A stretch of 63,984 nt of DNA, filler included, from Craspedostauros australis (GCA_030167865.1; 12 parts of 12 records of this genome joined end to end with filler, not necessarily neighbours in it); one strand, 5' to 3'. Positions 18,590 to 63,984 are shown, counted from the first letter of the whole stretch. Translations and numbers: made by a program. Notes: generated by a model not told the origin, from the letters alone.

Positions 18590-21500
18590 TTGTCTCTTTT
18601 GCCAACGCTTACTTTGATCAACATTGAAAACATTCTTTGCATCCTTGCTTTCGCAAAAGAGCGACAGATCGATCAGGCCACCGATTGGGACGCAATCGAC
18701 AAGTTCATCAAGTTCTCTGGATATGAAGTGCCATCTATCGAGACCCCAGTTGCACTCCGAGCAATTCAGTTGCAGTTAGAGGCGGACATGAAGGCAACAA
18801 GCCGAGAGCTCGCAGATGCTTCAAGCCGCGAGGTTGTGGTGCACTCACCACAGCGCCAGCCGGACCTGCAACGATCGCCATCTATGCCATCTGGCTAGCG
18901 ATATGATAAGGTCACCATGCCAGAGGCCGAGCCATTCAGCGGACTCAACATCGAGTGGTACCAGTGGAAGACGGACTTCATGCAACAACTGGTCACCACC
19001 AGATATGCAGACTACATGGAAGCGGAGAAGCCAGCACACTACCGAGCATCAGTGGACACTCAATTCTATGCGGTCTTCAAGTCCAGGACATGCAAGGGCG
19101 ACGCGCAGTACATCGTCAATGCTGAGGAACCAAGCTGTCACGCCGCATTCCAATCTCTCATTTGGATCTACGAGTCCAGCGAGAATCGGGCTGGCATCGT
19201 GGCAGAGGAGGAGGCAAGGCTCTCCAAGCTCATCTACACTGGGGACAGTCCATTTGCAACATTCATCAACGACTTCTCGATGTCTATTCACGCTATCGAG
19301 GACAACGGCAAGCCGATGAACGATCAGGAGAAGATTGCAAGATTCTTCTGCAACATCCGCGACGAGCGATTTGCAAGCATGATCACCAGCCTACAGCAGA
19401 CAAAGGAATCATTCTCCTGGGTCCGCGAAACGCTCATGCGCCATGACAAGATCCTCGACAAGTCTCCAGGACGCAGTCGCCGCACGCATCAGAAAGACAG
19501 TCGTCCGGACCGCAAGCGGCCGTACGACGAAGCATCTGGTGACCGCAAGAAGTCCTCCCACTACCGTCTGCCAAACATGGTGTTCAGAAGCCTACCTGCC
19601 GCAGCACAAGTGCTAGTGGTGGAGTCTTCATGCCACTTCCGCAACACCTGAGAACAAATCAGCAAGGCTGCGCTCAAACGCGCCAAGCCTGCTGAGTTCG
19701 CCAAGACCCAAGAGCAACAAGCTCAGCGCAAGTCCCACAAGCGCGCAAGATTCGGCAACAAGACCAATTGTGTCAAGAAGTATGGACCATGTGACAACAG
19801 TTCCTGACAACCACCAGCGGCTGTCACATGCCGTCAATCGGAAGTCAGCATTCATATCAAGGATCGGGATAACACTGACCTGGCGCATGATACTGCGGAG
19901 AGTAAGCCGGCAGCCAGAGCCCCGGAAACGCTACAGGTGTCGCGTCACAGCACAACCCACCCAAATACAGAGCACACGATTCGACGGGCAAGAGTAACGA
20001 ATAGTAGCCACGGCTATATCATTCTAGACTCAGGGGCGGACAGCGGCATTGTACACGAGTCTGGATGGGAAGTGACCCGACAGCATCTGCAGAAGCTCCA
20101 CGCTCGCGGCGCGACCGTGGATTCACCGGTCGATGCGTTTGCAATGGTTGACGCAGTGGCAGCATACGATCCGTCAGACGGCGGAGTGATTCTCATCAAG
20201 GCATATTTCGTGGCTCTCGACAAGCATCCACGGCAGATGGAGTTGCTATTCAACATGCACCACATGCGAGCTTCCGGCGTGCGCGTCTACGACAGACTTC
20301 GACAACACGATGGGCAGCAACGGATATTGTCTGGTGACATCAGCATCCCACTGGCAAATCATGACGGAAATACCCTGCGCATCCCAATCCGCAAACCAAC
20401 AGCTCACGAGCTCACCCAAGCCGCGCACATCACGATATGCGACAGGCACCGACGCCTAAGGCGATCACACACACATGTCGACTTCGACAAAGTAGTCCAA
20501 CATCTCCCACCGCAAGTGGTGGCGAAGACCAAGGAAGCATCCACCCAGCTGGCAGAGACTCCCATCGAAGCAGAGTCAAGACTCATCCCGAGGCAGTACC
20601 GAGCACAGCAAGCAGGTGCGCTGCAACCACACCGAATCAAGGGAAGAGTGGACACAGATCCATTTTTCTCCACAGTCCCATCCATTCGACATTACTGATG
20701 CATCCAACTCTTCACGCACAGCGAATCCAAGTTCATCTGGGCCAAACCGCTACGCAGAGAGGCGATGGCGCCAGGGGCGCTAACGGAATTCATTTTTCAA
20801 GTCGGGGCACCCGATCTACTCATCTCGGACAACTCACAAGTCCAAGCCGGCAAGGCATGGAAGGCTGTCACCACGAGGTACATGATCAAGCACTCCTTCA
20901 CTGCTCCAATGAACCAAAATCAGAACTGCGCGGAAAGAGCTATCGGCGATATCAAACGGCACGCATACCAGATGTTGTGGGTGGCCACTGCACCTCTCAC
21001 ATTCTGGTGTCACACGGTGCAACATGCGATTGATGTATGGAACTACACGGTGAAGGAAAGCATCCAATAGCGAACTCCTGTCGAGATGCTCCGCGGGAAC
21101 ACTCTGGACATCTCCATGTTCGGATTCACATCCTTTCAGCCGGTCTGGTATTTCGAGCCGATGACAAAGTTCCCACATCACCCATTCAAGCCTGGACACT
21201 TCTTGGGAATTGCATGGGACCATGGGGACCCTTTCACCTACCACATTTGGTTGCCAAAAGGCGAAGACGTCACCAAGGGCACGGCCCTGGTGCGCAACAT
21301 TGTGAAACCACGAATCGCGGAAGGCGCAAGTGCACCGCAAATCACTGACGAGGAAGTGCAACGAATCGCACGCCTTGATCTCATACACTACACAACCAAT
21401 GGCAAATCGGAGAAGCGGGTGCGAACCAAGACTATTCCGGCGCAGCTTGCTCAACAGGTCCGTGAGGCCATCGACGCGGTTGCCATGCGGTCAGGGGCGG

Positions 21501-24328
21501 CGGCTCACATTCCTGAAGCAGGACCACCGGAGGTCAGGGGCGTCGCGGTGAACGAAAACAGTACTCCCAACGCAGACCGATGGTTCGATCAGCCAAATGT
21601 CATCGCAGACGACGATGACGACCGCGACAGCGGGCCCACGGGCGCAATATCCGACAAAGACGGGGACGACGATCCCTCAACTGGCAACATCTCGGACGAA
21701 TCCGATGGCTATGAACCGGTGAGGATTCCAGATCCACCCCAGCAACGGATTCAGGGGCGTATCGACACTCTGGCTGAGTGCGAGCATGACGAAATGTTCC
21801 AAAATCAGATCACAAAAGACGAAACGAACGACCCAGCAATCGCATCTGTCGATGGCCATTCATTCCAAGGCGGACATCTCCATCTCAATGTGAAATGGGA
21901 CAACGATGAGATGCAGTGGTTCCGATACAACATCCTGAGGGCAGACCATCCCGAGCTCGTGGCGCGATACATCATCGCAAACGAACCGAAACGGCATGAC
22001 AGACACAATCGGCAATCGACGACAATGCTGAAATGGGCAAAGCACGCTGTGCGCGCAATACGAAGACGCATGCGACGCATCGAACGCACGCACATATTCA
22101 CAGTTGACGACGATGATAACATATCCATCTTGAGACGCATGTGGCCAGGGAAGAAGAAACCAAAGAAGGACTTCTTCGCCACCGTGTTTCACTACGGAGT
22201 GGAAGTGCCGCGCAACATGAAGCACGCACTCCAGCTTGACGAGTCCAACGGCAACACATTGTGGAGAGACGCGGCAAAGAAGGAGATCGACGCTTTCATC
22301 AAACTCAACTGCTTCAAGTTTCATCCATCAACATACCAACCTTCCTCAGACTATCATAGCACCAAGAAACGGCTAGTCTTCGCAGTGAAACAGGATCTGC
22401 GACGCAAGGGGCGCCTGGTCACCGGAGGCCACCTCATCAAACTCGCTGACAACATCAGAGTATACTTGTCCACAGTGAAGTCCACCAGTGTTTGAATACT
22501 CGACATCATTGCTGACGCCAACAAGCTGAAACAACTGTGCGGCGACGTTGGCAACGCATTCGTCAACGCATACACCAACGAGAAGATCTACGTGAGAGCT
22601 GGAAAGGAATTCAATCACCGTGAAGGTCAGACCATCGTACTCAAGAAGGTGCTGTATGGACTTTGATCGAGTGCACANNNNNNNNNNNNNNNNNNNNNNN
22701 NNNNNNNNNNNNNNNNNNNNNNNNNNNGACGCTTTCATCAAACTCAACTGCTTCAAGTTTCATCCATCAACACACCAACCTTCCTCAGACTATCATAGCA
22801 CCAAGAAACGGTTAGTCTTCGCAGTGAAATAGGATCTGCAACGCAAGGGGCGCCTGGTCACCGGAGGCCACCTCATCGAACTCGCTGACAACATCAGAGT
22901 ATACTTGTCCACAGTGAAGTCCACCAGTGTTTGAATACTCGACGTCATTGCTGACGCCAACAAGCTGAAACAACTGTGCGGCGACGTTGGCAACGCATTT
23001 GTCAACGCATACACCAACGAGAAGATCTACGCGAGAGCTGGAAAGGAATTCAATCACCGTGAAGGTCAGACCATCGTACTCAAGAAGGTGCTGTATGGAC
23101 TTTGATCGAGTGCACAACGCTTCCATGCTCACTTTGCAAACACACTCTCATCCATGGGGTTCTCCCCATCTCGACATGATCAAAAGATGTATGGATCAAG
23201 CTCAGAGATGATACTGGCTATGATTACATCTGCACACATGTTGGCGACTTCAAGATCGTGGCAAGGGATCCAGATCAATACATGAAGTCTATCCAGCAAG
23301 TCTACACAATCAAAGACATTGGACCACCCAAATACTATCTGGGCAACGACTATTCCAAGAATGCCAAGGGCAAATGGAGCGTTGGATGTGACAAATACAT
23401 CGCGAACGCACTGGACAAAGTCGAGCGGCAACATGGTGTGCTGAACAAACAGCTCGTGGCCATGTGCAACAAGGATCATCCGGAAACGGACAACTCCAAA
23501 CTACTCACACCTGATGAACATCAACAGTGCCAGCAGCTTATTGGCATGCTGAACTGGGTTGTTCAACTTGGACGTTTCAACGTCGCTTTTGCAGCTTCTT
23601 CACTTTCTCGATTCACTGCATCACCACGCAAAGGACACCTTGTGCGGGTGCTCAAGATCTGGGGCTACCTCAAGGCAAAGTCCACACTCAGAACGCAAGT
23701 CGACTCCAGACCCATGATACTTGAAAACTTCGATTCGACGCCCTCCAACCCAGACTTGGTTGTGCAAACGAAGGAAGAGTACCCTGAGGCGACGGAGGAC
23801 ATCGACGACCGATCGCCCAAGCCGATTTATCCAGAGCTACCCATGTATGCATTCGTCAATGCGGACCACGCACACGATCTCGTCACACGACGATCCAACA
23901 CTGGCATCATACTATTCCTTGGCAGGACACCTGTGTACTTCGTGAGCAAGAGGCAAACATTGGTTACCACGTCAACGTACAGCACAGAATTCAACGCGAT
24001 GCGATCAGTGACGGAGGAAATCATTGAACTACGATATGCGCTCCGATCGCTGGGAGTACGCGTCAAATCGCCAACGATCACATTCTGTGACAACAATGCG
24101 GTAATCTCGAACACGACCATCGCAGACAGCCTGCTGCAGAAGAAGCATGTGGCCATCTCATTTCATCGAGTCCGGGAGGCCGTCGGCGCCGGGATACTGG
24201 TCCCAGTACACGTCCCATCGGCTCACAACTTTGCTGACATGCTCACCAAGGCATTGGCAAAGCCAACACTAACGCTTCTTGTCACAGCTCTCTTCTATCC
24301 GGGTCTACCTCAAGATCAAGGGGCGTGA
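18590..24328 (+). pseudogene. Single-frame gag-pol polyprotein with multiple nonsense mutations
   Basis: PR: IILDSGAD. IN: VDTDPFFS / LISDNS / QNCAERAI. RT: DVGNAFVNA / LYGL / THVGDF (degenerate YVDD). RH: NADHAHD / YSTEF / CDN / NFADMLTK. In-frame stops at 18896, 19649, 19805, 20696, 21068, 22493 and 22664. Confidence 0.9.
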
Positions 24329-29050: not shown

Positions 29051-31649
29051 CATCCCCTTTCCATCCGCTGACAATCAAGGCGCAGAGGTACCATCGCTAC
29101 CTGCTCCAAAGCAGAAACCAATGATGCAAACGGATGCAGGTTTAATCAATGATGACCTCGCCCCTCCAATGTCAGCTTCAGAGGGAGTGAACCAACCGCT
29201 GTCTTCGACAGAGGGAGACTTCAGCTACCCTCCTGCAGCAAGTGAAGGCGAGGAACTCCAAGAGGGCCCCGCTTCACAAGAACCGCAATGGGAACCTTCT
29301 AACCAGCTTCCTGATCCGCTGAAGAAAGATCAGTCAGCTCAATCACCACTTCAACCCGTGTCCTCTATGCCAACATCAAATGTACCAGAGAGCACGACCT
29401 CATCACCAATTCCACCAACATCCACGATTACGCCCAAACGAGAACGGAGCACCAGGATTCGCAAAGAGCCACTCCGATTTACCTATGGACGTCTTGGAGG
29501 CAAGGCAGCGTGGCTTGAGGACGACGATTGTGAAGAGTACCACCTTTGTGTTGCGACGGCTGCTGAAGAAGAAATTGAATCAGACGACGCCACATCTGAC
29601 ATACATCCAGATTCGTATCCAATTCACGTATTCTCACGAGCTGTCATCGATTGCCTCAACACAATTGAATTTCTACAACGAAACGGCAGTGATCCTCTCT
29701 CTATCTACCTCCACGATTTCAAGGTCAACTCGCTATACTTGCTGCGCCAACTCCGCCAACGCTACCGAACTCTAAATCCACAAGCTCCAGTTCACGATTT
29801 GCCAAGAATGGAGCCTGAGGAGTTTCAAGCGAACATGGTCGATTGGTGGCAACCGGAACCAACAGACATGACGGAGGACGCCCCATTCAACGTAACAGAT
29901 CTATACGAAGACTTCTTCCTGGACATGGAGCTCCACATCATGGAGGANNNNNNNNNNNNNNNNNNNNNNNNNNNNNNNNNNNNNNNNNNNNNNNNNTACG
30001 CTGTGCGCAAGTTCCTCGGGATCATGAGCAAATACATGCTCACAGGAATCATGACCCCACGCTTCGATGCACTCGACTTCGCAGCAAGCTCTCTTCGTGA
30101 TCCAGCCGAATCCGACGATCTCGAAACACTGATGAACGAAGGGCACACTCCTCCAGAATGCGGACTTGGAGCAACAATGTTCAAGGCAAAGTTCCTCTCC
30201 ATCTGGAATGCAATCGGACAGAGCCATAACTACCGGCTGGCATTCGAATCCTTGCGACAACACACCAGCACCATTCGCCCAGGACCATGGCAGCAACCCA
30301 GCAAGTTCGAAGTTCAGCAATTCAACCTTGGAGTGCAAGAAGGAGGCACCGAGCCGGTCCATCACGTACCNAACACGCGCGAGACTGACTTTCAAGCCAT
30401 CCTCCAAAGCACCCTGACAGTTGACCCGAGCTACATTCTTGACACCAACAACTGCATCCCATAGAAGGATTGGGCCAACATCGAGCAGCACGCATACTCC
30501 GTGAACATCATTGAGCCACAGCCAGATGCCACCAACTTCCCAGCTTATGTTGACTGGCAACTCATGAGCTACTTCGCCACAGGCGCCGACCTCGACATCT
30601 CTGAGCGAACGGCAGCGTACAAGGCTTCGACCTCCGACCCAGACACACTCTCCTTCGACGAGNNNNNNNNNNNNNNNNNNNNNNNNNNNNNNNNNNNNNN
30701 NNNNNNNNNNNNATGGCAGCAACCCAGCAAGTTCGAAGTTCAGCAATTCAACCTTGGAGTGCAAGAAGGAGGCACCGAGCCGGTCCATCACGTACCTAAC
30801 ACGCGCGAGACTGACTTTCAAGCCATCCTCCAAAGCACCCTGACAGTTGACCCGAGCTACATTCTTGACACCAACAACTGCATCCCACAGAAGGATTGGG
30901 CCAACATCGAGCAGCACGCATACTCTGTGAACATCATCGAGCCACAACCAGATGCCACCAACTTCCCAGCTTATGTTGACTGGCAACTCATGAGCTACTT
31001 CGCCACAGGCGCCGACCTCGACATCTCTGAGCGAACGGCAGCGTACAAGGCTTCGACCTCCGACCCAGACACACTCTCCTTCGACGAGGCCATCCGCGAT
31101 GATAATAGAGACGCATGGATGCAAGCAGCGAACAAGGAAATCCAAGACCTCACCGAAAAAGGGACATGGGAGGAAGTCGACAAGAGCACCGTGCCCTATG
31201 GAGAGAAGATCTACCCAGGTACGTGGGTCTTCCGCCGCAAGCGCCTCCCCGACGGTACAATCAAGAAGTACAAGGGTCGATGGTGCTGCCGCGGCGATCT
31301 CATCCTCGAAGACGCTTCAACTTATGCGCCGGTCGTGGCATGGTCCTCCGTTCGCATCTTCCTGATCACATCCATCGTCCTGGGATGGGTCACGACATCA
31401 ATCGATTTCACCAACGCCTTCGTCCAAGCTGAAATTCACAAGCCGGTGTTCCTTCATCTACCACGGGGATTCAAGTCAAGCAAGGGATCGAACACCTGCC
31501 TTGTCCTCAGAAAGAGTCTGTACGGCCTCACCATCGCCCCTCGCTTATGGTATGAACACCTCATACGAGCTCTCCTTGCCGAAGGATTCACGGCCTGCGA
31601 TCAGGAGCAGTGCCTCTTCATCCGCGAAGGCATCATGATAGTCCTCTAC
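29051..31649 (+). mobile_element. Ty1/copia pol fragment: IN-RT linker and reverse transcriptase N-terminal half
   Basis: RERSTRIRK, DPDTLSFDEA, WVFRRKRLPDGTIKKYKGRWCCRGD, TYAPVV, IDFTNAFVQA, LRKSLYGL..APRLW, CLF, IVLY (cut just before VDD). Confidence 0.9.
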
Positions 31650-32172
31650 NNNNNNNNNNNNNNNNNNNNNNNNNNNNNNNNNNNNNNNNNNNNTTAATTA
31701 ATTAANNNNNNNNNNNNNNNNNNNNNNNNNNNNNNNNNNNNNNNNNNNNTTGACAGGACGATCGAGTAAAAGGGCAGGGTTCATGCTGTCGTGCTTGAGC
31801 CGTTTGTGTTGTACATCAACATGTCGTGGTGGTTCGGCACATTCACAGCTGTTCAGCAGCTCCATCCGCAGAGCAGTACTTGATCCACAGGCATGGATAT
31901 GCTTCAAGATGCCTGCAGGATTCGCAAGATGGTGAGCTGAACAGGTGGCGTGGTTACAGGAGCTGGAGGGTGAGCAGGGCATGGATTGTGGTTCAACTAC
32001 ACACCATGCGCGCGGTAGCCTTTCATTGCAGTATCGGGTTCGGATACCGGGTACCGTGTACGCAACATGGACGATTGAGTCCCGGATGGATCCCGGACCA
32101 AGTCTGTCCCAACTCTCCCTCTCGGCGTAGTGCGAAGCATGTCCCTGGAGTAAAAACCTCCATTGTTCGATC

Positions 32173-32667: not shown

Positions 32668-32801
32668 TGTTGGCATACGGTCGCAGACAGACGGTGCAGC
32701 AGCACACACCCATGGTCACAGCCTCTGCCAGATCGGAGATAATCACAATAATCACATCATCACACACACAACACATCACGTATCGTCTCCCGATCATCAC
32801 A
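32668..32801 (+). repeat. 5' LTR (134 bp, TG...CA)
   Basis: tgttggcatacggtcgcagacag... is repeated at 38636. Ends tcaca immediately before the PBS. Confidence 0.9.
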
Positions 32802-32810
32802 GGTTATGAG
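32802..32810 (+). promoter_or_regulatory. Primer-binding site GGTTATGAG (complementary to the initiator tRNA-Met anticodon arm)
   Basis: Directly follows the LTR CA. It is the complement of CUCAUAACC. Confidence 0.65.
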
Positions 32811-32935
32811 GAAATAAGCTTTAAGGCTCATCCTGCTACTCTGTACCCTCTGCTGTTGTTGGAAATCCACATCCGCGCAGCTCCTTTCTTGCACTACTTC
32901 CTCGCTCTCTTTTCCGTATCCATTCTTCGCACGTC

Positions 32936-34606
32936 ATGCCCGCCAAAACCGACAACCTCGATTCTGAGGAACTCAAAGGCCTCGCGTCTCTCTTCGCGCG
33001 CCTCAACTGGCATTGGGCTGGACACTTCGTCACCGGCGCCAACCTTCAAGACACGCTGGACCTCTGGGACTTCCTCGAGCTCGACGATGAGCTGTTCGAC
33101 GCCTTCTTCGCGAACTGGCCCAAGAACTCGGTTACGCGCGAATTCGGCCTCCGCCAGCTCCGGCGTTACTACCAGGACCACCCCGACGTTGCGTCTTGGG
33201 TTGATGTTCTCAGTCGTGACGACCTGCGCACGTACAAGCGTGCTAGCAAGCCGGCCGCCGTACCTCCGCCGAAGGTGCCCCCAGCCGCGCCTAACGCTGC
33301 TGCTGCCGACGTCGTCGCCGATGCGCCGCTGCCTGGTCACTACGGCCCTTCTGACGCTGCTGCTGGCGCCACGACTGAGACACCTCCGGACCCCGTGCTT
33401 GGCACTGAGGAACATCCGCTCGATGTCCCCGACGCGGGCCGTGAGCCACTGCCAGGTGATTCTACGGACTACATCACGGGGTCTGGTCTTCCCTATGCTG
33501 CCGCCAATGGCAACCCGTCCACGCTCGCACACTTCTCCTACGAGGCTGTGCTCTCTCCTATCGAGCCTGACAGGGATGCTGCTGGGTACTGGCAGCGCTG
33601 GGTGGCCAAACTCGTGGTGGACCAGCCTGCCGATGTGCTCAAGTGGTACACACAGTTTCAGGGTGAGGCTGATCGCGTCAGCATTGCGCTCGTGCCTTTG
33701 TCGCACTTCAACGCCCGGTGCTCTCTCATCCCCAAGAATGCCACTCGCGCCATCGTCATGCGCTCTGGTGTGCAGCTCAATCGCAAACTTCAGGAGGACG
33801 GCATCCTTGACCTGTCCGATCCATCTGTCAAGATGTATCACACGGCGTGCTTTGGCGTGGTGCCCCATCGCCTGTCTGGGTACATGCTCTTACACCAGGT
33901 GCTCCATGATGCCTTCCAGCGCATCGAGCGCACTGTCAGCCAGGCTCCTGCCTACTCTGACTTCCGTGACGTCGTGCTCTACGCTGACGCTCTCCTTGCG
34001 TACCAGCAGACTGAGACCGTCGTGCACAAGCGCACCTTCACGGACGTTGAAATGACGCGTCGGTTCCTGGAAGACCTTCGCGCCAGTGGCCTGGACGTTG
34101 GACACTTGGTCACTTCGCTGGAGCTTCTGCCGCAAGGCAAGCGAGTGCCACCCCATCTCCATGTGTCCGCGCTGGCCAGGACCATCCACTCTGATCCCAC
34201 CGTGCCTACTCGCCCCACTGGGCACCGCGCCCAAACCCGTTCGTCCACTCGACAGGGTGCAGGTGGCGGTTTCCGTGGTGAGCGCAAGCGATCGGCGTTT
34301 TACCAACCTGACAAGGACGCTTTTTGCACGGCTTGCAGACGTGGAGGACACAAGGCTGAATCCTGTCTCAATTGGGCAAGACACCTTGCCTTTGCCGAGC
34401 TCCGTGAGTCTGAGCCAGCCCTGGCGTCCACGGTCCTTGCAAAATTCAAGGAGACCTACACCAAGGACAAGTCTCGGGCCCTCGCCAGAGCGCTTCGGCT
34501 GACTCACGCCGACCTTGGTGATGGCGACGACCTCGACGATGGCGCCGTTGTTGCGCACGTTGAGGACCTGCTGCTGCAGGATTTTGTGCTTGCTGGCCAG
34601 GACTAA
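32936..34606 (+). CDS. gag: Gag protein of copia element
   Basis: 556-aa ORF after the PBS with a CCHC zinc knuckle CTACRRGGHKAESC. Confidence 0.9.
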   Translation: MPAKTDNLDSEELKGLASLFARLNWHWAGHFVTGANLQDTLDLWDFLELDDELFDAFFANWPKNSVTREFGLRQLRRYYQDHPDVASWVDVLSRDDLRTYKRASKPAAVPPPKVPPAAPNAAAADVVADAPLPGHYGPSDAAAGATTETPPDPVLGTEEHPLDVPDAGREPLPGDSTDYITGSGLPYAAANGNPSTLAHFSYEAVLSPIEPDRDAAGYWQRWVAKLVVDQPADVLKWYTQFQGEADRVSIALVPLSHFNARCSLIPKNATRAIVMRSGVQLNRKLQEDGILDLSDPSVKMYHTACFGVVPHRLSGYMLLHQVLHDAFQRIERTVSQAPAYSDFRDVVLYADALLAYQQTETVVHKRTFTDVEMTRRFLEDLRASGLDVGHLVTSLELLPQGKRVPPHLHVSALARTIHSDPTVPTRPTGHRAQTRSSTRQGAGGGFRGERKRSAFYQPDKDAFCTACRRGGHKAESCLNWARHLAFAELRESEPALASTVLAKFKETYTKDKSRALARALRLTHADLGDGDDLDDGAVVAHVEDLLLQDFVLAGQD

Positions 34607-34627
34607 AACCGTGTCCTGGTGAGCAGC
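34579..34627 (+). promoter_or_regulatory. Putative programmed -1 ribosomal frameshift signal (G_GAU_UUU plus stem-loop)
   Basis: Heptamer at 34579-34585 in gag phase, 5-nt spacer, then stem TGCTGGCCAGGAC / GTCCTGGTGAGCA. The -1 frame is open from 34564 through the protease. Confidence 0.75.
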
Positions 34628-37600
34628 TCAAAAACGTTTCCCGTGCATGCGAGACACCTGTAGGCGCTCCGTATGGAGAGGTGTCTTCGCTTACCACAGC
34701 CTACGCGCACCAGCCTCCTTCCAAGCTGGTGCCATTCGTGGCCTGTACTGACGTGACGCTGTTCGCAGCATCTACTCGACAGGTATCACGACGTGCGTGG
34801 CGCCGACAGGACCATGGGCAGTGTGACCCTGGTGCCAATGTCTGTGCCACGCCGCACATCGACATGCTTCATGCCTATGAAGTCTTTGCGCAGCCCGTCC
34901 TTCTTGAGGCTGCCAATGCTTCGGCCCCTGCTATGGAGTGTCCCGGTGCCGGCGTCATGCAATTGCATGGTACTCAGGACCGCAGCGTCTCTGTACGTAT
35001 GCTCCACTGCCCGCACTTGGCTGACACGCTTGTTTCACCGCAGGCTATCGTTGGGCAGTCCGACAACGACTTTCAAGGTTTCTTTGTGCACTCCACACCC
35101 CATGGAGCGCGAGTGGTCTTCACGTCCAGCGCTGGTGAGGTCGAGGTTCCCCTTGTGGTGCGCAATGGCCTGTACTACTTCCAAGGCCCATCTCAGCGCG
35201 TGTTTTCCATCCGCAAGGCATCTGCCACACTCGTGTCGGAGCTCTGGCATCTCCGCCTTGGCCACGTTGGCATGAGTCAGCNNNNNNNNNNNNNNNNNNN
35301 NNNNNNNNNNNNNNNNNNNNNNNNNNNNNNNCGCTACGGGTATACCGCCTGAGGCCATCGCTGCAGTGCACCCACTACGGCACTGTGATGCGTGCAGCCA
35401 GGCTGGATACCAACACGCGGCCCGAGGTCCCAATGATACTCAGACAGCCAACGTCCCTGGCGCAAGGTTCCATGTCGACTTTGGGTTCATGCGTGCGTCC
35501 AATGCGCAGTATGGGCTGAAGGGCAAGAGTCCGCGTGACTCGCGTGTGGTACGATCTGTGGATGGATACTGCGCATACCTTCTTGTGGTGGATGCGTACA
35601 CGGCGTACGTCTGGGTCTTCATGACCAAGGACAAGTCTCCACCCATCGTGGCTGTCCGGCAGGTACTCACGTCGTTTGGCCGGTCCAGTGGTTACAGAGC
35701 AGTCCGTGTTGATTTGGGTGGCGAACTGGCGCGCTCCGATCAATTCCGTGCCATGGTGATGGAGTGTGGTTACACAGTTGAACCCACCGGAGCCGACTGC
35801 GCCTGGATGAACGGCAAGGTCGAGCGCCTTAACCGCACATTTGGCACCATGGTGCGGGCACTCTTGTACTCTGCCGGCATGCAACCACATTTCTGGTCCA
35901 AGGCGCTTGCACACGCCGTCTACCTGAAGAACCGGCTGTACCACTCGGGCATCCGCACCACTCCGTACGAGAGACAGCATGGCGTCCAGCCTGATCTCTC
36001 TCACTTGCGCGTGTTTGGGTCTCGCGTTACAGTCAAGAAGCCTGGGAAGGCTGCTGCCAAGCTCGACGTGCACACCTACGATGGCATCTTCGTCGGGCAC
36101 ACCGCCACACAGGCCCTGCATGAGTACTTTGATCTCCGCACTGGCCGGTTCAAGCGCGCTGGGAACATTGTGTTCGACGAGGCACACTTCTCATCGACTC
36201 ACCGGCCGCCTGGACCGCAACTGCTCTTTGATCTGGGATTTCAGCAGCCAGTTGCGGTTGAGTGCGATGCCGCCCGTGTGGGGACTGCTTCATATCCTCG
36301 CATTGGGAAGAAGGTTTCTGCCACACCACCACTCGCGTGCCGGGTGCCGCTCCCTCTTGGAGATCTGCTTGATCGTGCCATCCAGCATGCGTCTGCTGCG
36401 GCCTGCTCCACCACCGATGCGACACATGCTGTGGATCTTGACATGGCTGATGATCCCTTTGGGTACAGCTTCGACCAGACTGTCGCAATCGCTGGGACCG
36501 ATGTCACTTTGGGCTTCGACTTTCGGTACGACGCGCAAAGAGATCGCCTCGTGCTCATCATGTGCCGGCCTGGACAGCCTTCTGCACGGATACCAAGGTG
36601 GAGATCGCGTCTTCGGCACTCTCACCTGCAGACTGTCCATGGCCAAGATGTGCACAACCTGGATCAACTCAAGGCGTGCATCCGCAAGCTGCGCGACGAC
36701 AAAATCTCGTCTGCAGTGTTCACCTTCGCGTTTGACGACGTCCGCAACGCGCTCTCCCAGACTGGTGTCCCGCAAATGTACTTCGATCAACTTCGCAATG
36801 TGAGGGACATCATCGAGTCCATCAGTCCCGTCGCACATGCCACCAGTGTCACTAATGCGCCTGTGAAGCTCACTCGACGGAAGCTTCTACAGCAGGACGA
36901 CTGGCCTGAGTGGAGTGCGGCTGAGTACAAACAATTGGATCAGTATGATGCGCAACGGATGTTTGGAGAGCCCGTCGTGCCCCCTGCAGGAGCAGCTGTG
37001 TTCAACTGGGTTTGGGTCTATGTGGTGAAAACCCATGAGAATAATCGCAAGAAGGCTCGCGCAGTGTGCGACGGATCCACTCGAGGCGGTCATGCACGCG
37101 TCTTTGGCCACACCTATGCCGCCACGCCCGACCTGACGGAGCTTCGCATTCTTCTTGCCATTGCAGCGGTTCAAGGACTCAAAGTCTATGGATCTGACGT
37201 CACCAATGCATTTGCGGAGGCCCCAGCTGGCGAACAACGGTACTACATGCGTGTTGACGAGCAGTATCGCGCCTGGTGGGAAACTCGACGTGGTCGACAC
37301 ATGCCCAGTGGCGCTGTCATCCCAGTCCTCAAGAACTTGCAAGGTCACCCCGAGGCACCCAGGTTGTGGAGTATTCATGTCAACGGACTACTTCGTGCAA
37401 TGGACTTTCAGGCCACTACCCACGCGCCGTGTCTCTACACTGGGAGCATTCAAGGGTCCAAAGTGTACGTCCTGCGACAAGTGGATGACTTCGCGGTTGC
37501 GGCCACCTCCGAGGGTGTTTTTGACACATTCTGCGATCGCCTGGACAACAGTCTGTTCCAGCCCATGACCAGGCAAGGCCTGATGGTACATTACAATGGG

Positions 37601-38602
37601 CTGGATGTCGATCAAACCCAGGACTTCGTCAAGGTCCATTGCACTTCATATATCGACAAGATGCTCGAGCGTCATGAGTGGCAAAACCTCAAAACTACGC
37701 AGCGACTGCCCATGCGATCGGACAACTCCTACGTCAAAAGTCTGGACAACGCGGTGCTCCCAGCGACTGATGCCGAACGCGCGAATGTGGCGAGTCAGTT
37801 TACCTTCCGGTATCGGCAAGCAATCGGTGAGCTTATCTGGGCAATGATCTCGTGCAGACCTGACATCTCTTTCCCGGTTGTGAAGCTCTCACAATTCTCT
37901 GCCAATCCTGCTGCGCTTCATTTTGAGGGCGTCAAGTATCTCATGCGATATGTCGCCGGTACTCGTGATCACGGTGTCACGTATTGGAGGGTACAGCCTC
38001 TCGTGGATATGCCTCCGGCGCCCCATCCCACTCGACTTTCGCCTGCCGACGACGATGTCCATGATGCTACTGGCATTCAACACCTCGACGCGTCAACGCT
38101 GTACGGCTACACTGATGCTGACTGGGGGGTTGACATTCGACATCGCAGGTCCGTCACTGGGATCATCTATCTCTTTGGAGGCGCTGCAGTGGCTTGGAAA
38201 ACTCGTGTGCAGCCTACTGTATCCATGAGCAGCACCGAGGCAGAATTCGTCGCTGCTAGTGATGCTGGCCGCATGGCCCTTTGGCTTCGTTCCATTCTTG
38301 ATGAGGTTGGCGTGAAACAGCAGTACGCGACCATGATATTCGAGGACAACCGCGGCGCGCGGCTGATGGCTTCTGCCAGTCAGCCTACCCGGAACTCGCG
38401 TCACATCGCGATCCGAGAGTTCGCAGTCCTTGATTGGGTTGAGCGGGATCTGCTCACCTACCCAGAGGTCGCCTCTGACCTAAACGCATCCGACATTTGC
38501 ACGAAACAGACGCCTGTGGCCCTGTACTTCCGGCATATCGACCTAGTGATGGGTCGTCTTGTGCCTTTCTATGTACGCGGCCGCGGCAACCCGGATTTGT
38601 AA
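34579..38602 (+). CDS. pol: Pol polyprotein (protease, integrase, RT, RNase H) in the -1 frame to gag; N gap at 35282-35331
   Basis: PR: QCDPGAN. Zn finger: LWHLRLGH...CDAC. IN: FHVDF / RVDLGGE / NGKVERLNRT. RT: KKARAVCDG / DVTNAF / RQVDDF. RH: YTDADW / SSTEAEF / EDN / ASDICTK. Confidence 0.92.
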
Positions 38603-38635
38603 CTTTTCCGCTGGCTACGCCAGCGTGGGGGGGGG

Positions 38636-38710
38636 TGTTGGCATACGGTCGCAGACAGACGGTGCAGCAGCACACACCCATGGTCACAGCCTCTGCCAGA
38701 TCGGAGATAA
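38636..38710 (+). repeat. 3' LTR (visible part), preceded by a poly-G PPT at 38627-38635
   Basis: Identical to 32668-32742. Confidence 0.9.
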
Positions 38711-39852
38711 NNNNNNNNNNNNNNNNNNNNNNNNNNNNNNNNNNNNNNNNNNNNNNNNNNNNNNNNNNNNNNNNNNNNNNNNNNNNNNNNNNNNNCACAA
38801 TTTCCCACGTCACATTTTCCTTCAATGTTTCCGCACTTTCGACTGTTTGTTTTGCCGCATGTGGATGCAAATCATCGTGAGTTTGCTCCAAATTCTCGTC
38901 TTCCTTGGCTTTGCACCGTACAAATTCTTCTTCGTCACAACCAGAATCATTCAGCGTTGGTTGCGCACTGGCGCTCGCAGTCATACTTACCATTGTGCAC
39001 TCCATCGTTTCAGCGGTTGTTGACTTCTTTTCTTGTTCTTTTTTTAACTTGAGATAGTCCGTGATGAGGTATGCTTTTACTCTCAGTGATGATACGTGTA
39101 GTTGAGCGTGCGAGTCTGTTTTCACCCGTTCCATCGTCATCAGTTGTTGGCGTGCGTCGTACTCCGACATTCTGTTCCTTGAGTCATGGCAAGCAAGTAC
39201 GCAGATTTTGATCAGCTCTGCCAACACATAGTCAGGATAGGCTCAAACGATCGAGTCTTCTTTGCGGCGCAACCCGGTGTTGCAACAGGAGGAAGATCCA
39301 TAGAAGCAGTTGTATCCTTCCACATCGCGTCATATTCAGCAGTTTCCATGAGGTTGTTGTGGAGGGCTGTTTTAATACATTCGCTCCACTCTGTTTCACA
39401 CTCTTCTGGGCTTTACGCCTCATCTTTGCCTTTTTGTATCAACTGGTACTGGTTGGCGTGACTACTTGTGGTCTTCCTTCACCGTCGCGCCAAGTTCGTT
39501 CACAACGGAGCACTCCCAAGCCTCTTCCTCCACCAAATTTGGCATCGGTGACATTCGAAGTGTCAAGTAACCAAGCTCTCTCATTCTTGTATTGAATCTT
39601 GTGAGTGTTGGGAACACCAAGCATGTTTGCAGCCCATTGAGGTCTTGGGATCGTACAGTGAGTCAGCCACTTGCCCTTCAATAGGGAAGCGTCAACCAGC
39701 AACATCGTGGTGCCATTGATGTCTCCAAATCGCAGGGCTTTCAAGATGATTGCCATCCCTTCCATCGCTGTCGCCATCACCTGTTGCCTCATCACCATTG
39801 CTATCCCTGCTGTCAAAGTACACAAGTAACTACTGAAGACGTGTTGGCCCAT

Positions 39853-42800
39853 TGTTGCATGCCCTGGTCGGAGCTCTTGTTCTTTTATTGTGAGTTGTCC
39901 GAAGACAATCCCCCGACCAGTATTTTGACATATATGACTAGAAGAGATGAAAAGGTACAGAGAAAGCTGTCACGCCCCTTGATCTCAAGGTGGATCACTG
40001 TAGAACAGGGTTATGGCAAGAAGTGTTAGTGTTGGCCTCACCAATGCCTTGGTGAGCATGTCAGCAAAGTTCTGAGCTGATTGGACTTGGACTGGAACCA
40101 GTATCCCAGCTCCCACAGCCTCACGGACTCAGTGAAATGATATTGCCACATGCTTCTTTTGCAATAGGCTGTCTGCAATCGTCGTTTTCGAGATCACCAC
40201 ATTGTTGTCGCAGAATGTGACCGTCAGTGATTGGACGTGGACTCCCAGCGATCGGAGTGCGTATCGGAGTGCAATGATTTCTTCCGTCACTGATCGCATC
40301 ATGTTGAATTCTGCTCCATATGTAAACGTTGTGACTGATGTCTGCCGCGTGCTCAAGAAGTACACAGGCATCCTGCCAAGGAAAAGGATGATCCCAGTGT
40401 TTGATCAGCATGTGACAAAATCGTGCGCATGGTCAGCATCGACGAATGCATACATTGGCAGCTCCGGATAGATTGGCTTTGGTGATCAGTCATCGACGTT
40501 CTCCTGTGCCTCAGGGTATTCTTCCTTCATTTGCGCCACCAATTCTAGGTTGGACGGTATCGAGTTGAAGTTGTCGAATATCATGGGTCTGGAGTCGATT
40601 TGTGTTCTGAGTGTGGACATACTCTTGAGATAGCCCCATATCTTGAGTACTCTTGCTAGATGTCCTTTCCGTGGTGATGCAGTGAATTGAGAGAGTAAAG
40701 AAGTTGCAAAAGCGACGTCGAAACATCCAAGTTGAATGACCCAGTTCAGCATGCCGATGAGCTGCTGGAACTGTTGGTGTTTGTCTGGTGTGAGTAGTTT
40801 GGAGTCATACGTTTCCGGATGGTCCTTGTCCCACATGGGAACATGCTGGTCATGGAGTGTTCCATGCTGCCATTCGACGTTATCCATCGCGTTTGCAATG
40901 GATTTGTCACATCCAATGCTCCATTTGCCTTTCACATTCCTGGAGTTGTTGTTGCCCAGATAGTATTTGGGTGGTCCAATGTCATTGATGGTGTAGACTT
41001 GCTGGATGACCTTCATGTATTGGTCTGGTTCTTTTGCCACAATCTTGAAGTCATCAACATGCATGCATATGTAGTCATACCCAGTGTCATCCCTCCACTT
41101 GATCCATATGTCCTGGTCATGCCATGATGGAGAGAACCCCATGGATGAGAGTGTGTTTACAAAGTGAGCATGGAAGCTTTGCGCACTCGATTGGAGTCCA
41201 TACAATGCCTTCCTGAGTACGATTGTCTGACCCTTTCTGTAATCGAACTCTTTTCCTGCCCTCACGTACATCTTCTCGTTGATGTAGGCATTGACGAATG
41301 CATTCCCCACGTCGCCGCAGAGTTGCTTCAGCTTGTTTGCGTCCATGATGACATCGAGTATCCGTATACTGGTTGATTTGACGGTTGATGAGTATACTCT
41401 GATGTTGTCAGCGAGTTCAATGAGGTGACCGCTGGCTACCAGCCGCCCCTTGCGCCGCAGATCCTGTTTCACAGCGAAGATGAGCCAGAGCTTGGTGCTC
41501 TGGTAGTACGATGAAGGTCGGTGAGTGGATGGATGGAATTCAAAGCAATCGAGGTCAATCAGAGCGTTGATCTCTTTCTTTGCTGCATCCTTCAACAATG
41601 TGTTGCCATTGGCTTCGTCAAATTGGAGTGTGTGTCGCATGTTGCGTGGCACTTCTACACCGTATTGGAATACTGTAGCGAGGAAGTCCTTGTTCAGCTT
41701 CTTCTTTTCTGGTCGTATGCGCCTCAGGATGGCGATGCTGTCGTTGTTGTCGACTGTGAAGATGTGCATGCGCTCGGTTCGTCGCATGCATCTGCGTATC
41801 GCGCGAAGAGCGTGCTTTGCCCATTTCAGTATTGTCATTGACTGTCGATTGTGCCTGTCATGCCGTTTTGGCTCGTTGGCAATGATGTATCGCGCCACGA
41901 GCTCGTGATGGTCTGCCCTCAGGATGTTGTATCGGAACCATTGAGTTTCATTGTTGTCCCATTTCACATTGAGATGGAGATGTCCGTCTTGGAAGGAGTG
42001 GCCTGCGATGGATGTAATTGCTGGTTCGTTCGTATCGTCTTTGTAATCTGATTTTAGAACATCTCATCATGCTCGCGCTCAGCCAGAGTGTCGATACGCC
42101 CCTGAATCCACTGCTGGGGAAGATCTGGAATCCTCACTGCTTCATAGTCATCGGATTCTCTCAAGTTGTCTGCAGTTGAGAGCTTGTCTTCCCCTTTGCC
42201 ATCGGATATCATGCTCGTAGGCTTGCTGTTGTGGTTGTCGTTGTCGTCAATGATGACATTCTGCTGACCAAACCATCAGTCGTCATGCGGAATAGCATTG
42301 TTGTTGACCACGACGCCCCTGGTCTCCAGTTGTCCCTCAGGAATGCGAGCAGCCGCCCCCGACCGCACGGGAATCGCGTCGATGACCTCACGGACCTGTC
42401 AAGCGAGTTGCACCAGCATCGTCTTGGTTTGCGCTTGTTGCCCCAAGTTGTCTCTGGTAGTAGTGTGTATGAGATCGAGGCGTGCAATGCACTGAACTTC
42501 CTTGTTGGTGATTTGCGGAGCGCTTGCGTCTTCTGAAATTCGTGGTTCCACAATGTTCTGTACCAGGGCAGTGCCTTTGGTTACGTCGTTGCCCCGCGCC
42601 AACCATATGTTGTATGTGAAAGGGTCTCCATGGTCCCATGCGATTCCCAGGAAGTAACCTGGATTGAATGGGTGATGCGGAAACTTTGTCATTGGCTCGA
42701 AATACCAGACCTGGTGAAAGAACGTGAACCTGAACATGGAGATGTCCGGAGTGTTCTTGTGGAGCAGTTCGATGGGATTCTTCCATTGAATGCTCTCCTT

Positions 42801-62732: not shown

Positions 62733-63984
62733 TGTTCGATGATGTCAGCTAGATCCGTGTATGCGATGAGCTCCTCGGTGTCGTCGTCGCCGTATGCGAT
62801 GAGCATCTTGATGTTGTCATGGTTGGCTGCGTCACCGTCCTTGATCTTGCGGATNNNNNNNNNNNNNNNNNNNNNNNNNNNNNNNNNNNNNNNNNNNNNN
62901 NNNNNNNNNNNNNNNNNNNNNNNNNNNNNNNNNNNNNNNNNNNNNCCTGGATCTGATTCTCCATGTGATGTGGCTACCAGGTCAGATAGTGCATGCACAA
63001 CGGGTTGTCTAGCTTTAGGTGTGCTGTCACTGTCGAAACCTTCTGGATTTTCGGTTTCGCTAGCTTCGTCACCCACGCTACCATCCTCCCCAGAATCAGG
63101 CAGGGGGTAGTCCGCCCGAAGGTTTCGCGCGTCATCAGACACACGTCGGATGCTCGAGCGTGGCAACAGCCGTTGCGTTGCTTCATCTAGTACCCAGAAC
63201 GTCAGTTCGTCACCCTTGTGCTCGCACGGTCCAGCCCAGCGTCCACGCCGTTCTTGTGTGGTGCCAGGGAAGGCAGCATTCCCAACCTTGTAGTAAACCG
63301 GCTCCCACCAGTGGAAGCTGAGGTACTTGCTCACGTCGGGACGTCGGCCAGTGGCGGCTTGGATGGGTGTGATGTGACCGGCTGTGGACTGTGACAGGTG
63401 GTTGAGCAGTCCCACGACGTACAAGGTGCNNNNNNNNNNNNNNNNNNNNNNNNNNNNNNNNNNNNNNNNNNNNNNNNNNTGCATGCACAACGGGTTGTCT
63501 AGCTTTAGGTGTGCTGTCACTGTCGAAATCTTCTGGATTTTCGGTTGCGCTAGCTTCGTCACCCACGTTACCACCCTCCCCAGAATCAGGCAGGGGGTAG
63601 TCCGCCCGAAGGTTGCGCGCGTCATCAGACACACGTCGGATGCTCGAGCGTGGCAACAGCCGTTGCGTTGCATCATCCAGTACCCAGAACGTCAGTTCGT
63701 CACCCTTGTGCTCGCACGGTCCAGCCCAGCGCCCACGGCGTTCTTGCGTGGTGCCAGGGAAGGCAGCGTTCCCAACCTTGTAGTACACCGGCTCCCACCA
63801 GTGGAAGTTGAGATACTTGCTCACGTCGGGACGTTGGCCAGTGGCGGCTTGGATGGGTGTGATGTGACCGGCTGTGGACTGCGACAGGTGGTTGAGTAGC
63901 CCCACGACGTACAAGGTGCAGATGAGCCAGAACCTGGCAGGGGTGCCAGTTCGGTCCATGATGCCGTTGGTGGTGCGCTTGATA
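62733..63984 (-). mobile_element. Copia (CoDi-like) integrase C-terminal fragment, duplicated across a gap
   Basis: IKRTTNGIMDRTGTPARFWLIC, TPIQAATG.RPDVSKYL.FHWWEPVYY, ERRGRWAGPCEHKGDELTFWVL. Confidence 0.85.

Follow-up and report, generated by a model that had tools for sequence, protein, structure and literature searches.

The gag/pol junction of a Ty1/copia element

We analysed a long terminal repeat (LTR) retrotransposon in a 63,984-nt stretch of Craspedostauros australis DNA (GCA_030167865.1) made of parts of 12 records joined end to end with filler; the whole of this stretch is referred to below as the window. The element occupies 32668-38710 on the plus strand, where paired LTR starts, gag, pol and a G9 tract are found, and its gag and pol genes overlap in different reading frames. 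A first-pass annotation had interpreted this overlap as the site of a retrovirus-style programmed -1 ribosomal frameshift that yields Gag-Pol. The related elements described below support that interpretation, in which the frameshifting itself is inferred from sequence.

The gag open reading frame (ORF; 32936-34606, plus strand, frame 2) encodes 556 amino acids from its first Met and ends at the stop TAA 34604-34606, where the annotation had placed it. A Pfam search with gag matched no family. The protein carries a single CCHC zinc knuckle (CTACRRGGHKAESC; 34325-34366), whose residues C464, C467, H472 and C477 are invariant across 14 aligned gag proteins, and close to its C-terminus D549 and F550 are nearly invariant in the same alignment.

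pol begins in a reading frame shifted by -1 from that of gag. This frame opens after TGA 34561-34563 and stays open from 34564 up to an N gap at 35282, giving an overlap with gag of 43 nt (34564-34606), close to the roughly 40 nt first estimated. Its first Met is residue 101 and its protease Asp is residue 88; as had been claimed, no ATG precedes the protease DPG motif. The 5' part of pol (34564-35281) comprises the protease (PR) and the start of the zinc-binding region of the integrase (IN). The motifs CDPGAN (Asp codon 34825-34827) and WHLRLGH (35245-35265) agree with the relatives' consensus, and the Pfam family gag_pre-integrs matches with E = 2.5e-4, below the curated cut-off. A 50-N assembly gap (35282-35331) then interrupts the integrase zinc-finger region, in which relatives are continuous. 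The remainder of pol (35333-38602, plus strand, 1089 aa) encodes the integrase core, reverse transcriptase (RT) and RNase H (RH), as homologues and Pfam indicate (RVT_2, E = 4.7e-15; SH3_retrovirus, E = 9.5e-13). We assign the element to Ty1/copia because the order along pol is PR-IN-RT-RH, with the DPG protease motif at 34825, WHLRLGH/gag_pre-integrs at 35245, an integrase DFGF region at 35477, then RVT_2 and VDDF at 37481.

Past the 50-N run pol reads in frame 2, which is the frame of gag. We considered an organization in which gag and the main part of pol share a frame and PR alone is out of frame, and rejected it as an artefact of the gap. Since relatives encode PR-IN-RT in one unbroken ORF and their consensus fits only about 7 codons at this position, the 50 Ns merely hold the place of the missing bases without giving their number, and no meaning attaches to the difference in frame between the two sides.

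Within the overlap lies the heptamer G_GAU_UUU (34579-34585), in the X_XXY_YYZ phase reported for it, with GAT (34580-34582) and TTT (34583-34585) as gag codons. A 5-nt spacer, GUGCU (34586-34590; the minimum free energy fold also permits weak extra pairs), separates it from a two-tier hairpin (34591-34625), a putative frameshift stimulator, in which TGCT (34591-34594) pairs with AGCA (34622-34625) and CCAGGAC (34597-34603) with GTCCTGG (34613-34619). The loop is 9 nt long and its first three bases are the gag stop, and both arms and stop thus lie as first described. Folding of 34586-34660, a check that the annotation had proposed, gave -29 kcal/mol (z = -3.63), with 0/200 shuffles equally stable, and the hairpin beats 99.7% of the element's 50-nt windows in stability. 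Translation across the shift yields the transframe peptide ...LLQDFCACWPGLK, in agreement with the earlier prediction. An Rfam scan of the window returned no family at the slip site, and two sub-threshold chance matches only.

In a single copy the heptamer is weak evidence, because GGATTTT is present in the window at about chance frequency (8 copies on both strands, 6.5 expected); it is the comparative data that lift it above chance. Among the 8 copies, the one at 34579 alone falls where a long ORF closes and an extended -1 ORF follows. Two others, at 63045-63051 and 63535-63541, lie 490 nt apart in an identical ORF context, a sign that this end of the window carries a repeat, tandem or dispersed.

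The LTRs are recognized by a 75-nt direct repeat, 100% identical and with a spacing of 5968 nt. The first 75 nt of the 5' LTR, beginning TGTTGG, lie at 32668-32742, and those of the 3' LTR at 38636-38710, adjoining a G9 polypurine tract that was read directly (38627-38635). The repeat is seen over its first 75 nt only, the 3' LTR being interrupted by an N gap (38711-38795) that hides the remainder of this copy. Because the two LTR stretches are identical at 75/75 positions the copy is taken to be young, and we read 32668-38710 as a young LTR retrotransposon of the Ty1/copia type.

The window as a whole is a gap-rich draft (59 N runs, 52% G+C) in which gap sizes are often fixed, at 50 N or as paired 44 N + 44 N. 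It contains no second copy of this copia family. Distant copia-like pol remnants with 24-25% identity to the element's pol are found at 18590-24328, 30465-31697 and 40048-41481 (minus strand). The first of these had been described as another copia family that uses one frame; four of its five ORFs of at least 200 aa do share a frame, but the region is split five ways and contains an N gap, and it looks decayed or gapped, which makes it no clear case of a single-ORF strategy.

Related elements and constraint on the heptamer

A shift of frame between gag and pol might be a 1-nt indel private to this copy, arising in a dead element or by assembly error, in a family whose functional members have a single ORF. 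The gap-rich draft with its 59 N runs and the change of pol frame across an N gap would fit such an indel, as would the single ORF of many copia elements, to which the summary of a 2003 survey in PMC5009743 also speaks. The homologues argue otherwise. An exhaustive HMMER search of 1.8 billion representatives recovered 32 gag homologues of 160-885 aa, with matches that extend to the homologues' C-termini, and 0/32 are gag-pol fusions; a word-indexed protein search with gag or the PR region had given no match. In 17/32, Asp-Phe lies at most 10 residues before the stop (C-termini include EDFCNAGQE, QDFINAGQM, QDFC, ADF, SDFP and TDFR), the remaining 15 being mostly fragments or having different ends. 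The gag stop falls at a homologous place, 0-7 residues past Asp-Phe.

The pol homologues (n = 165; the best 46-54% identical) give the same picture from the other side of the junction. Among the 120 that were listed, with lengths of 615-1785 aa, none reaches the roughly 1900 aa of a gag-pol fusion, and the 24 N-termini examined all start close to the protease. The homologues come from MMETSP, ENA, JGI and Logan assemblies, the diatom Thalassiosira profunda being the only named organism among those listed. Many of the more distant pol relatives (33-40% identity; P0059, P0070 and P0073 among them) have a dUTPase domain (PF00692) inside the polyprotein, a domain absent from the window element and its closest relatives.

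At the DNA level, a pol-based scan of JGI metagenomes confirmed 236 stretches, and the best 80 were kept as loci; 22 of these loci combine a closed 5' end of pol with 600 nt or more of upstream sequence. In 9 of these 22, pol is shifted by -1 from a long upstream ORF that it overlaps by 16-115 nt, and in 9/9 the overlap contains G_GAT_TTT in the gag phase. The gag stop follows the heptamer by 3 or 15 nt in these loci and by 18 nt in the window. A looser scan added four further loci with short upstream flanks (L035, L037, L039 and L046). In 10/22 loci gag and pol share a frame with a single stop between them, a group to which we return below. The other three of the 22 loci (L052, L079 and L080), considered as counter-examples, were rejected as truncated or decayed copies. 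A gag-based scan of the JGI metagenomes with five gag proteins produced 199 pattern matches, 0 of them confirmed, and a scan of viral contigs with pol found no locus.

A scan of GTDB genomes found six loci (L081-L086), all on contigs filed under bacterial metagenome-assembled genomes (MAGs), the bins being Sulfomarinibacteraceae, Luteolibacter, Lamprobacter, Gammaproteobacteria, Woeseiaceae and Afifella. The most likely origin of such copia contigs is eukaryotic DNA that contaminated the bins. L083 shares the window's arrangement of gag, heptamer and -1 pol, and L081 is a decayed copy that retains the slip site. In L084 pol is likewise at -1, with G_GTA_AAA (L084:1287-1293) at the identical position, followed by a 6-nt spacer (NNN-TAA) and a hairpin homologous to those of L083 and L081; this locus is an apparent natural slip-site swap. 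The -1 layout with in-phase G_GAT_TTT is thus found in 13 metagenome loci and in the MAG contig L083, and every related -1 locus whose junction is readable has an in-phase slippery heptamer where gag ends, followed by a hairpin. The stop lies exactly 3 nt past the heptamer in five metagenome relatives with a full gag ORF and in L035, L081 and L083. Given 14 independent loci with the same layout and heptamer, the homologous gag stop and the missing fusions, we regard an indel private to this copy as very improbable. The continuous gag-pol ORF that the annotation had allowed for in relatives is absent from the 32 gag homologues, and 14 related loci have the -1 layout instead.

The near-invariance of D549 and F550 in the protein could also be understood if gag and pol were separate cistrons, with Asp-Phe kept for the Gag C-terminus (for example for protease cleavage or assembly), the hairpin for packaging or dimerisation, and Pol expressed through reinitiation or initiation at an internal site, from a subgenomic or spliced RNA, or by bypass. 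Gao et al. in 2003 reportedly proposed other routes for plant sireviruses with non-overlapping gag and pol. We examined the heptamer at the nucleotide level. In an ungapped alignment of 10 junctions over 66 columns only 7 columns are invariant, and these are the heptamer. G-GAT-TTT is present at the slip site in 14/14 -1 elements, the conservation in relatives that the annotation had suggested looking for. Among 72 control Asp-Phe pairs, in frame in the same ORFs, 14 are encoded by GAT-TTT, and just 1 of these follows a G. The codon before Asp-Phe at the slip site specifies P, S, Q, L, E or V and its third base is always G, whereas codons ending in G make up just 0.11-0.28 of the codons of these ORFs. 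Given x-Asp-Phe, the probability of the heptamer pattern under each element's own codon usage is 0.02-0.06.

L084 extends this point, as Val-Lys replaces Asp-Phe there and a slippery pattern, G_GUA_AAA, is still in place. With synonymous sites fixed and the site swapped in this way, slipperiness is under constraint, and not the Gag peptide alone. Separate expression of Pol is contradicted by the fixed synonymous sites and wobble base (14/14 against 1/72) and by the L084 pattern; the overlaps, moreover, are short and always contain the heptamer, and the window's pol frame has no ATG ahead of the protease. We consider this alternative improbable.

The downstream hairpin and the proposed frameshift

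A -1 frameshift site is expected to be followed, at about 5-9 nt, by a stimulatory RNA structure; in 14/14 elements a hairpin starts 0-6 nt past the heptamer. Every one lies above the median stability of its own element's 50-nt windows, at fractions from 0.003 (the window) to 0.215 (L033), and Fisher's combination over nine lineages gives p = 7e-7 for hairpin stability. Most have two tiers and, in the 3' arm, a bulge of 2-3 nt; the gag stop is positioned at the end of the spacer or in the apical loop. A subclade of seven sequences yields a consensus of 11 pairs, 7 of which show compensatory double changes, and 95.9% of its cells are paired, a value that 0/500 shuffles match and that compares with 27-47% in slid controls. 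L081, L083 and L084 show additional compensatory changes in the hairpin.

In the gag C-termini of the window and of its closest gag relatives (P0004-P0007 and P0015), x-x-Ala-Gly-Gln/His is kept between Asp-Phe and the stop. In the window the codons for this motif form the 5' arm of the hairpin (GCUGGCCAGGAC), so that the motif may be conserved on account of RNA structure or of the -1 frame that it overlaps (CWPG).

The hairpin also bears on whether the base is gained or lost during transcription, by polymerase slippage on the T run of GGATTTT. There is a homopolymer run at the site, and slippage during transcription is known to lead to the same products by another path (PMC5009743). An RNA hairpin at 0-6 nt is nevertheless the arrangement of a ribosomal site. 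The invariant G_GA and the gag phase would have no role for a polymerase but fit tandem tRNA slippage, and the run comprises only 4 T (4 A in L084), fewer than in runs known to slip. We give transcriptional slippage very little credence.

Several observations weigh against a programmed frameshift at this site. Re-pairing at the heptamer is perfect in the A site (UUU to UUU) and partial in the P site (GAU to GGA); with this imperfect P-site re-pairing the heptamer is not a canonical X_XXY_YYZ. With an assembly gap inside pol, this copy may not be intact. The relatives are metagenome contigs of anonymous origin, kept as the top 80 of 236 confirmed stretches, and most stop short of the junction. 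The hairpins of L033 (fraction 0.215) and L083 (z = +0.26) are unexceptional alone. Covariation was assessed on ranges trimmed to each predicted hairpin and represents about four lineages, which makes it supportive rather than decisive. Across all clades, RNAalifold on ten trimmed hairpins found 0 pairs, and a covariance-model alignment reached 51% paired cells, which 73/500 shuffles equalled; the all-clade consensus fails because the lengths of hairpin arms and loop vary between clades. Of the compensatory stem changes that the annotation had proposed to look for, those within one subclade were recovered, and a consensus for all clades was not.

Weighing these observations, we think it very probable that the element makes Gag-Pol by a retrovirus-style programmed -1 frameshift at G_GAU_UUU. 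The anatomy of the junction, its conservation among relatives down to synonymous sites and the recurrence of a hairpin downstream are shown here; that ribosomes slip, how efficiently they do so, and that the hairpin and not the nearby stop is the stimulator are all inferred. In the mechanism we propose, full-length RNA would be translated to Gag, with termination at UAA 34604, and the hairpin 5 nt downstream would pause ribosomes at 34579-34585. A minority of ribosomes, with GAU and UUU in the P and A sites respectively, would slip -1 on G_GAU_UUU, tRNA-Asp and tRNA-Phe moving in tandem; the hairpin, and perhaps also the stop close by, would promote the slip. Shifted ribosomes would then produce a Gag-PR-IN-RT-RH fusion (...LLQDF up to the shift, CACWPGLK... 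after it), and slippage would set a low Pol:Gag ratio, as in retroviruses.

Known recoding systems and the history of the lineage

The copia group is better known for a single ORF, for splicing (Drosophila copia) or for +1 shifting (Ty1). Ty1 of yeast, which shifts +1 at CUU_AGG_C, belongs to the same superfamily and likewise sets its Gag:Gag-Pol ratio through recoding in a short overlap; it differs in the opposite direction of the shift, its dependence on a rare tRNA and its lack of tandem slippage and of a stimulatory hairpin. The closer parallels are with the -1 sites of retroviruses and Ty3/gypsy elements (HIV-1, RSV, many Drosophila elements), which have in common with the window element a gag stop a few codons past an in-phase heptamer, a start-less -1 pol, an RNA structure past a short spacer and a low-ratio Gag-Pol fusion, the last of these predicted here. 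Unlike them, the window element is Ty1/copia and its heptamer is not XXXYYYZ.

GGAUUUU is a frameshift site in dianthoviruses, the example that the annotation had given for plant viruses. In print, the heptamer is a documented -1 site of pea enation mosaic virus 2 (PEMV2; PMC5009743, PMC4737148). The PEMV2 site as displayed in PMC5009743, G_GAU_UUU_UGG_UAG, carries its stop 3 nt downstream. PEMV2 and the plant umbraviruses thus share with our elements an identical heptamer and phase, a hairpin close downstream and, in 8 relatives, a stop 3 nt past the heptamer; they differ in being RNA viruses that express an RNA-dependent RNA polymerase, and PEMV2 adds long-range elements, of which none was found here, though no search was aimed at them. 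GGAUUUU is reported for several yeast and fungal double-stranded RNA viruses too.

As for LTR elements, the portion of PMC5009743 that covers the 2003 survey places pol at -1 in 28/51 animal LTR elements and in no plant element then known. The diatom CoDi copia elements (Maumus et al. 2009, PMC2806351) are a further point of comparison, the named pol relatives of the window element being from the diatom Thalassiosira profunda and from MMETSP transcriptomes; the main text of that paper names no slip site or structure. Full-text searches, thin on subscription journals, found no paper describing a slippery site in a copia-type element. gag-pol -1 frameshifting is textbook for retroviruses and for many gypsy-type elements, and its conserved use in one branch of Ty1/copia is little documented.

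On pol trees the window groups with L001 and L026 (SH-aLRT 100), and >2 substitutions per site separate it from the 12 remaining rows of the frameshift type. Eight in-frame-stop rows are closer to the window's clade than are those 12 rows. Strategy labels are strongly clustered on the tree (0/500 shuffles). The tree was made by a quick method, unrooted and with no outgroup, and a single switch between the -1 and in-frame-stop strategies is neither shown nor rejected (support 63, unrooted tree).

The in-frame-stop loci form a sister set of ten, namely L004, L005, L009, L013, L014, L015, L016, L023, L028 and L058 (for example, the stop at L004:2618-2620). The single gag/pol stop is TGA in 10/10, which suggests UGA readthrough, or a host that decodes TGA as sense, as an alternative Gag-Pol strategy. 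No shared context was obvious downstream of the TGA stop in the 10 loci.

These distributions allow a tentative reading, to which we assign rather less than an even chance, that G_GAU_UUU with a bulged hairpin is the ancestral Gag-Pol recoding module of a deep Ty1/copia branch in diatoms and other marine protists, and that the in-frame-UGA (readthrough) lineages and the G_GUA_AAA lineage are later replacements. If this is true, the branch would be a natural series of recoding-signal swaps and the first group of Pseudoviridae in which a retrovirus-style -1 site is conserved, and its heptamer, shared with umbraviruses, dianthoviruses and totiviruses, would have stayed unchanged over >2 substitutions per site.

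For the superfamily, which surveys call mostly single-ORF or +1, the junction described here points to a Ty1/copia lineage with a classic retroviral -1 signal, conserved to synonymous sites. It suggests an annotation rule for diatom and protist genomes, namely that where gag ends just past an in-phase GGATTTT, pol continues at -1; under this rule such pol genes would no longer be called truncated or start-less. The hairpins with compensatory changes offer a natural mutant series for reporter assays in a transformable diatom, and the -1, variant-heptamer and in-frame-UGA relatives, side by side, may serve as a small natural model in which the exchange of recoding signals can be studied.

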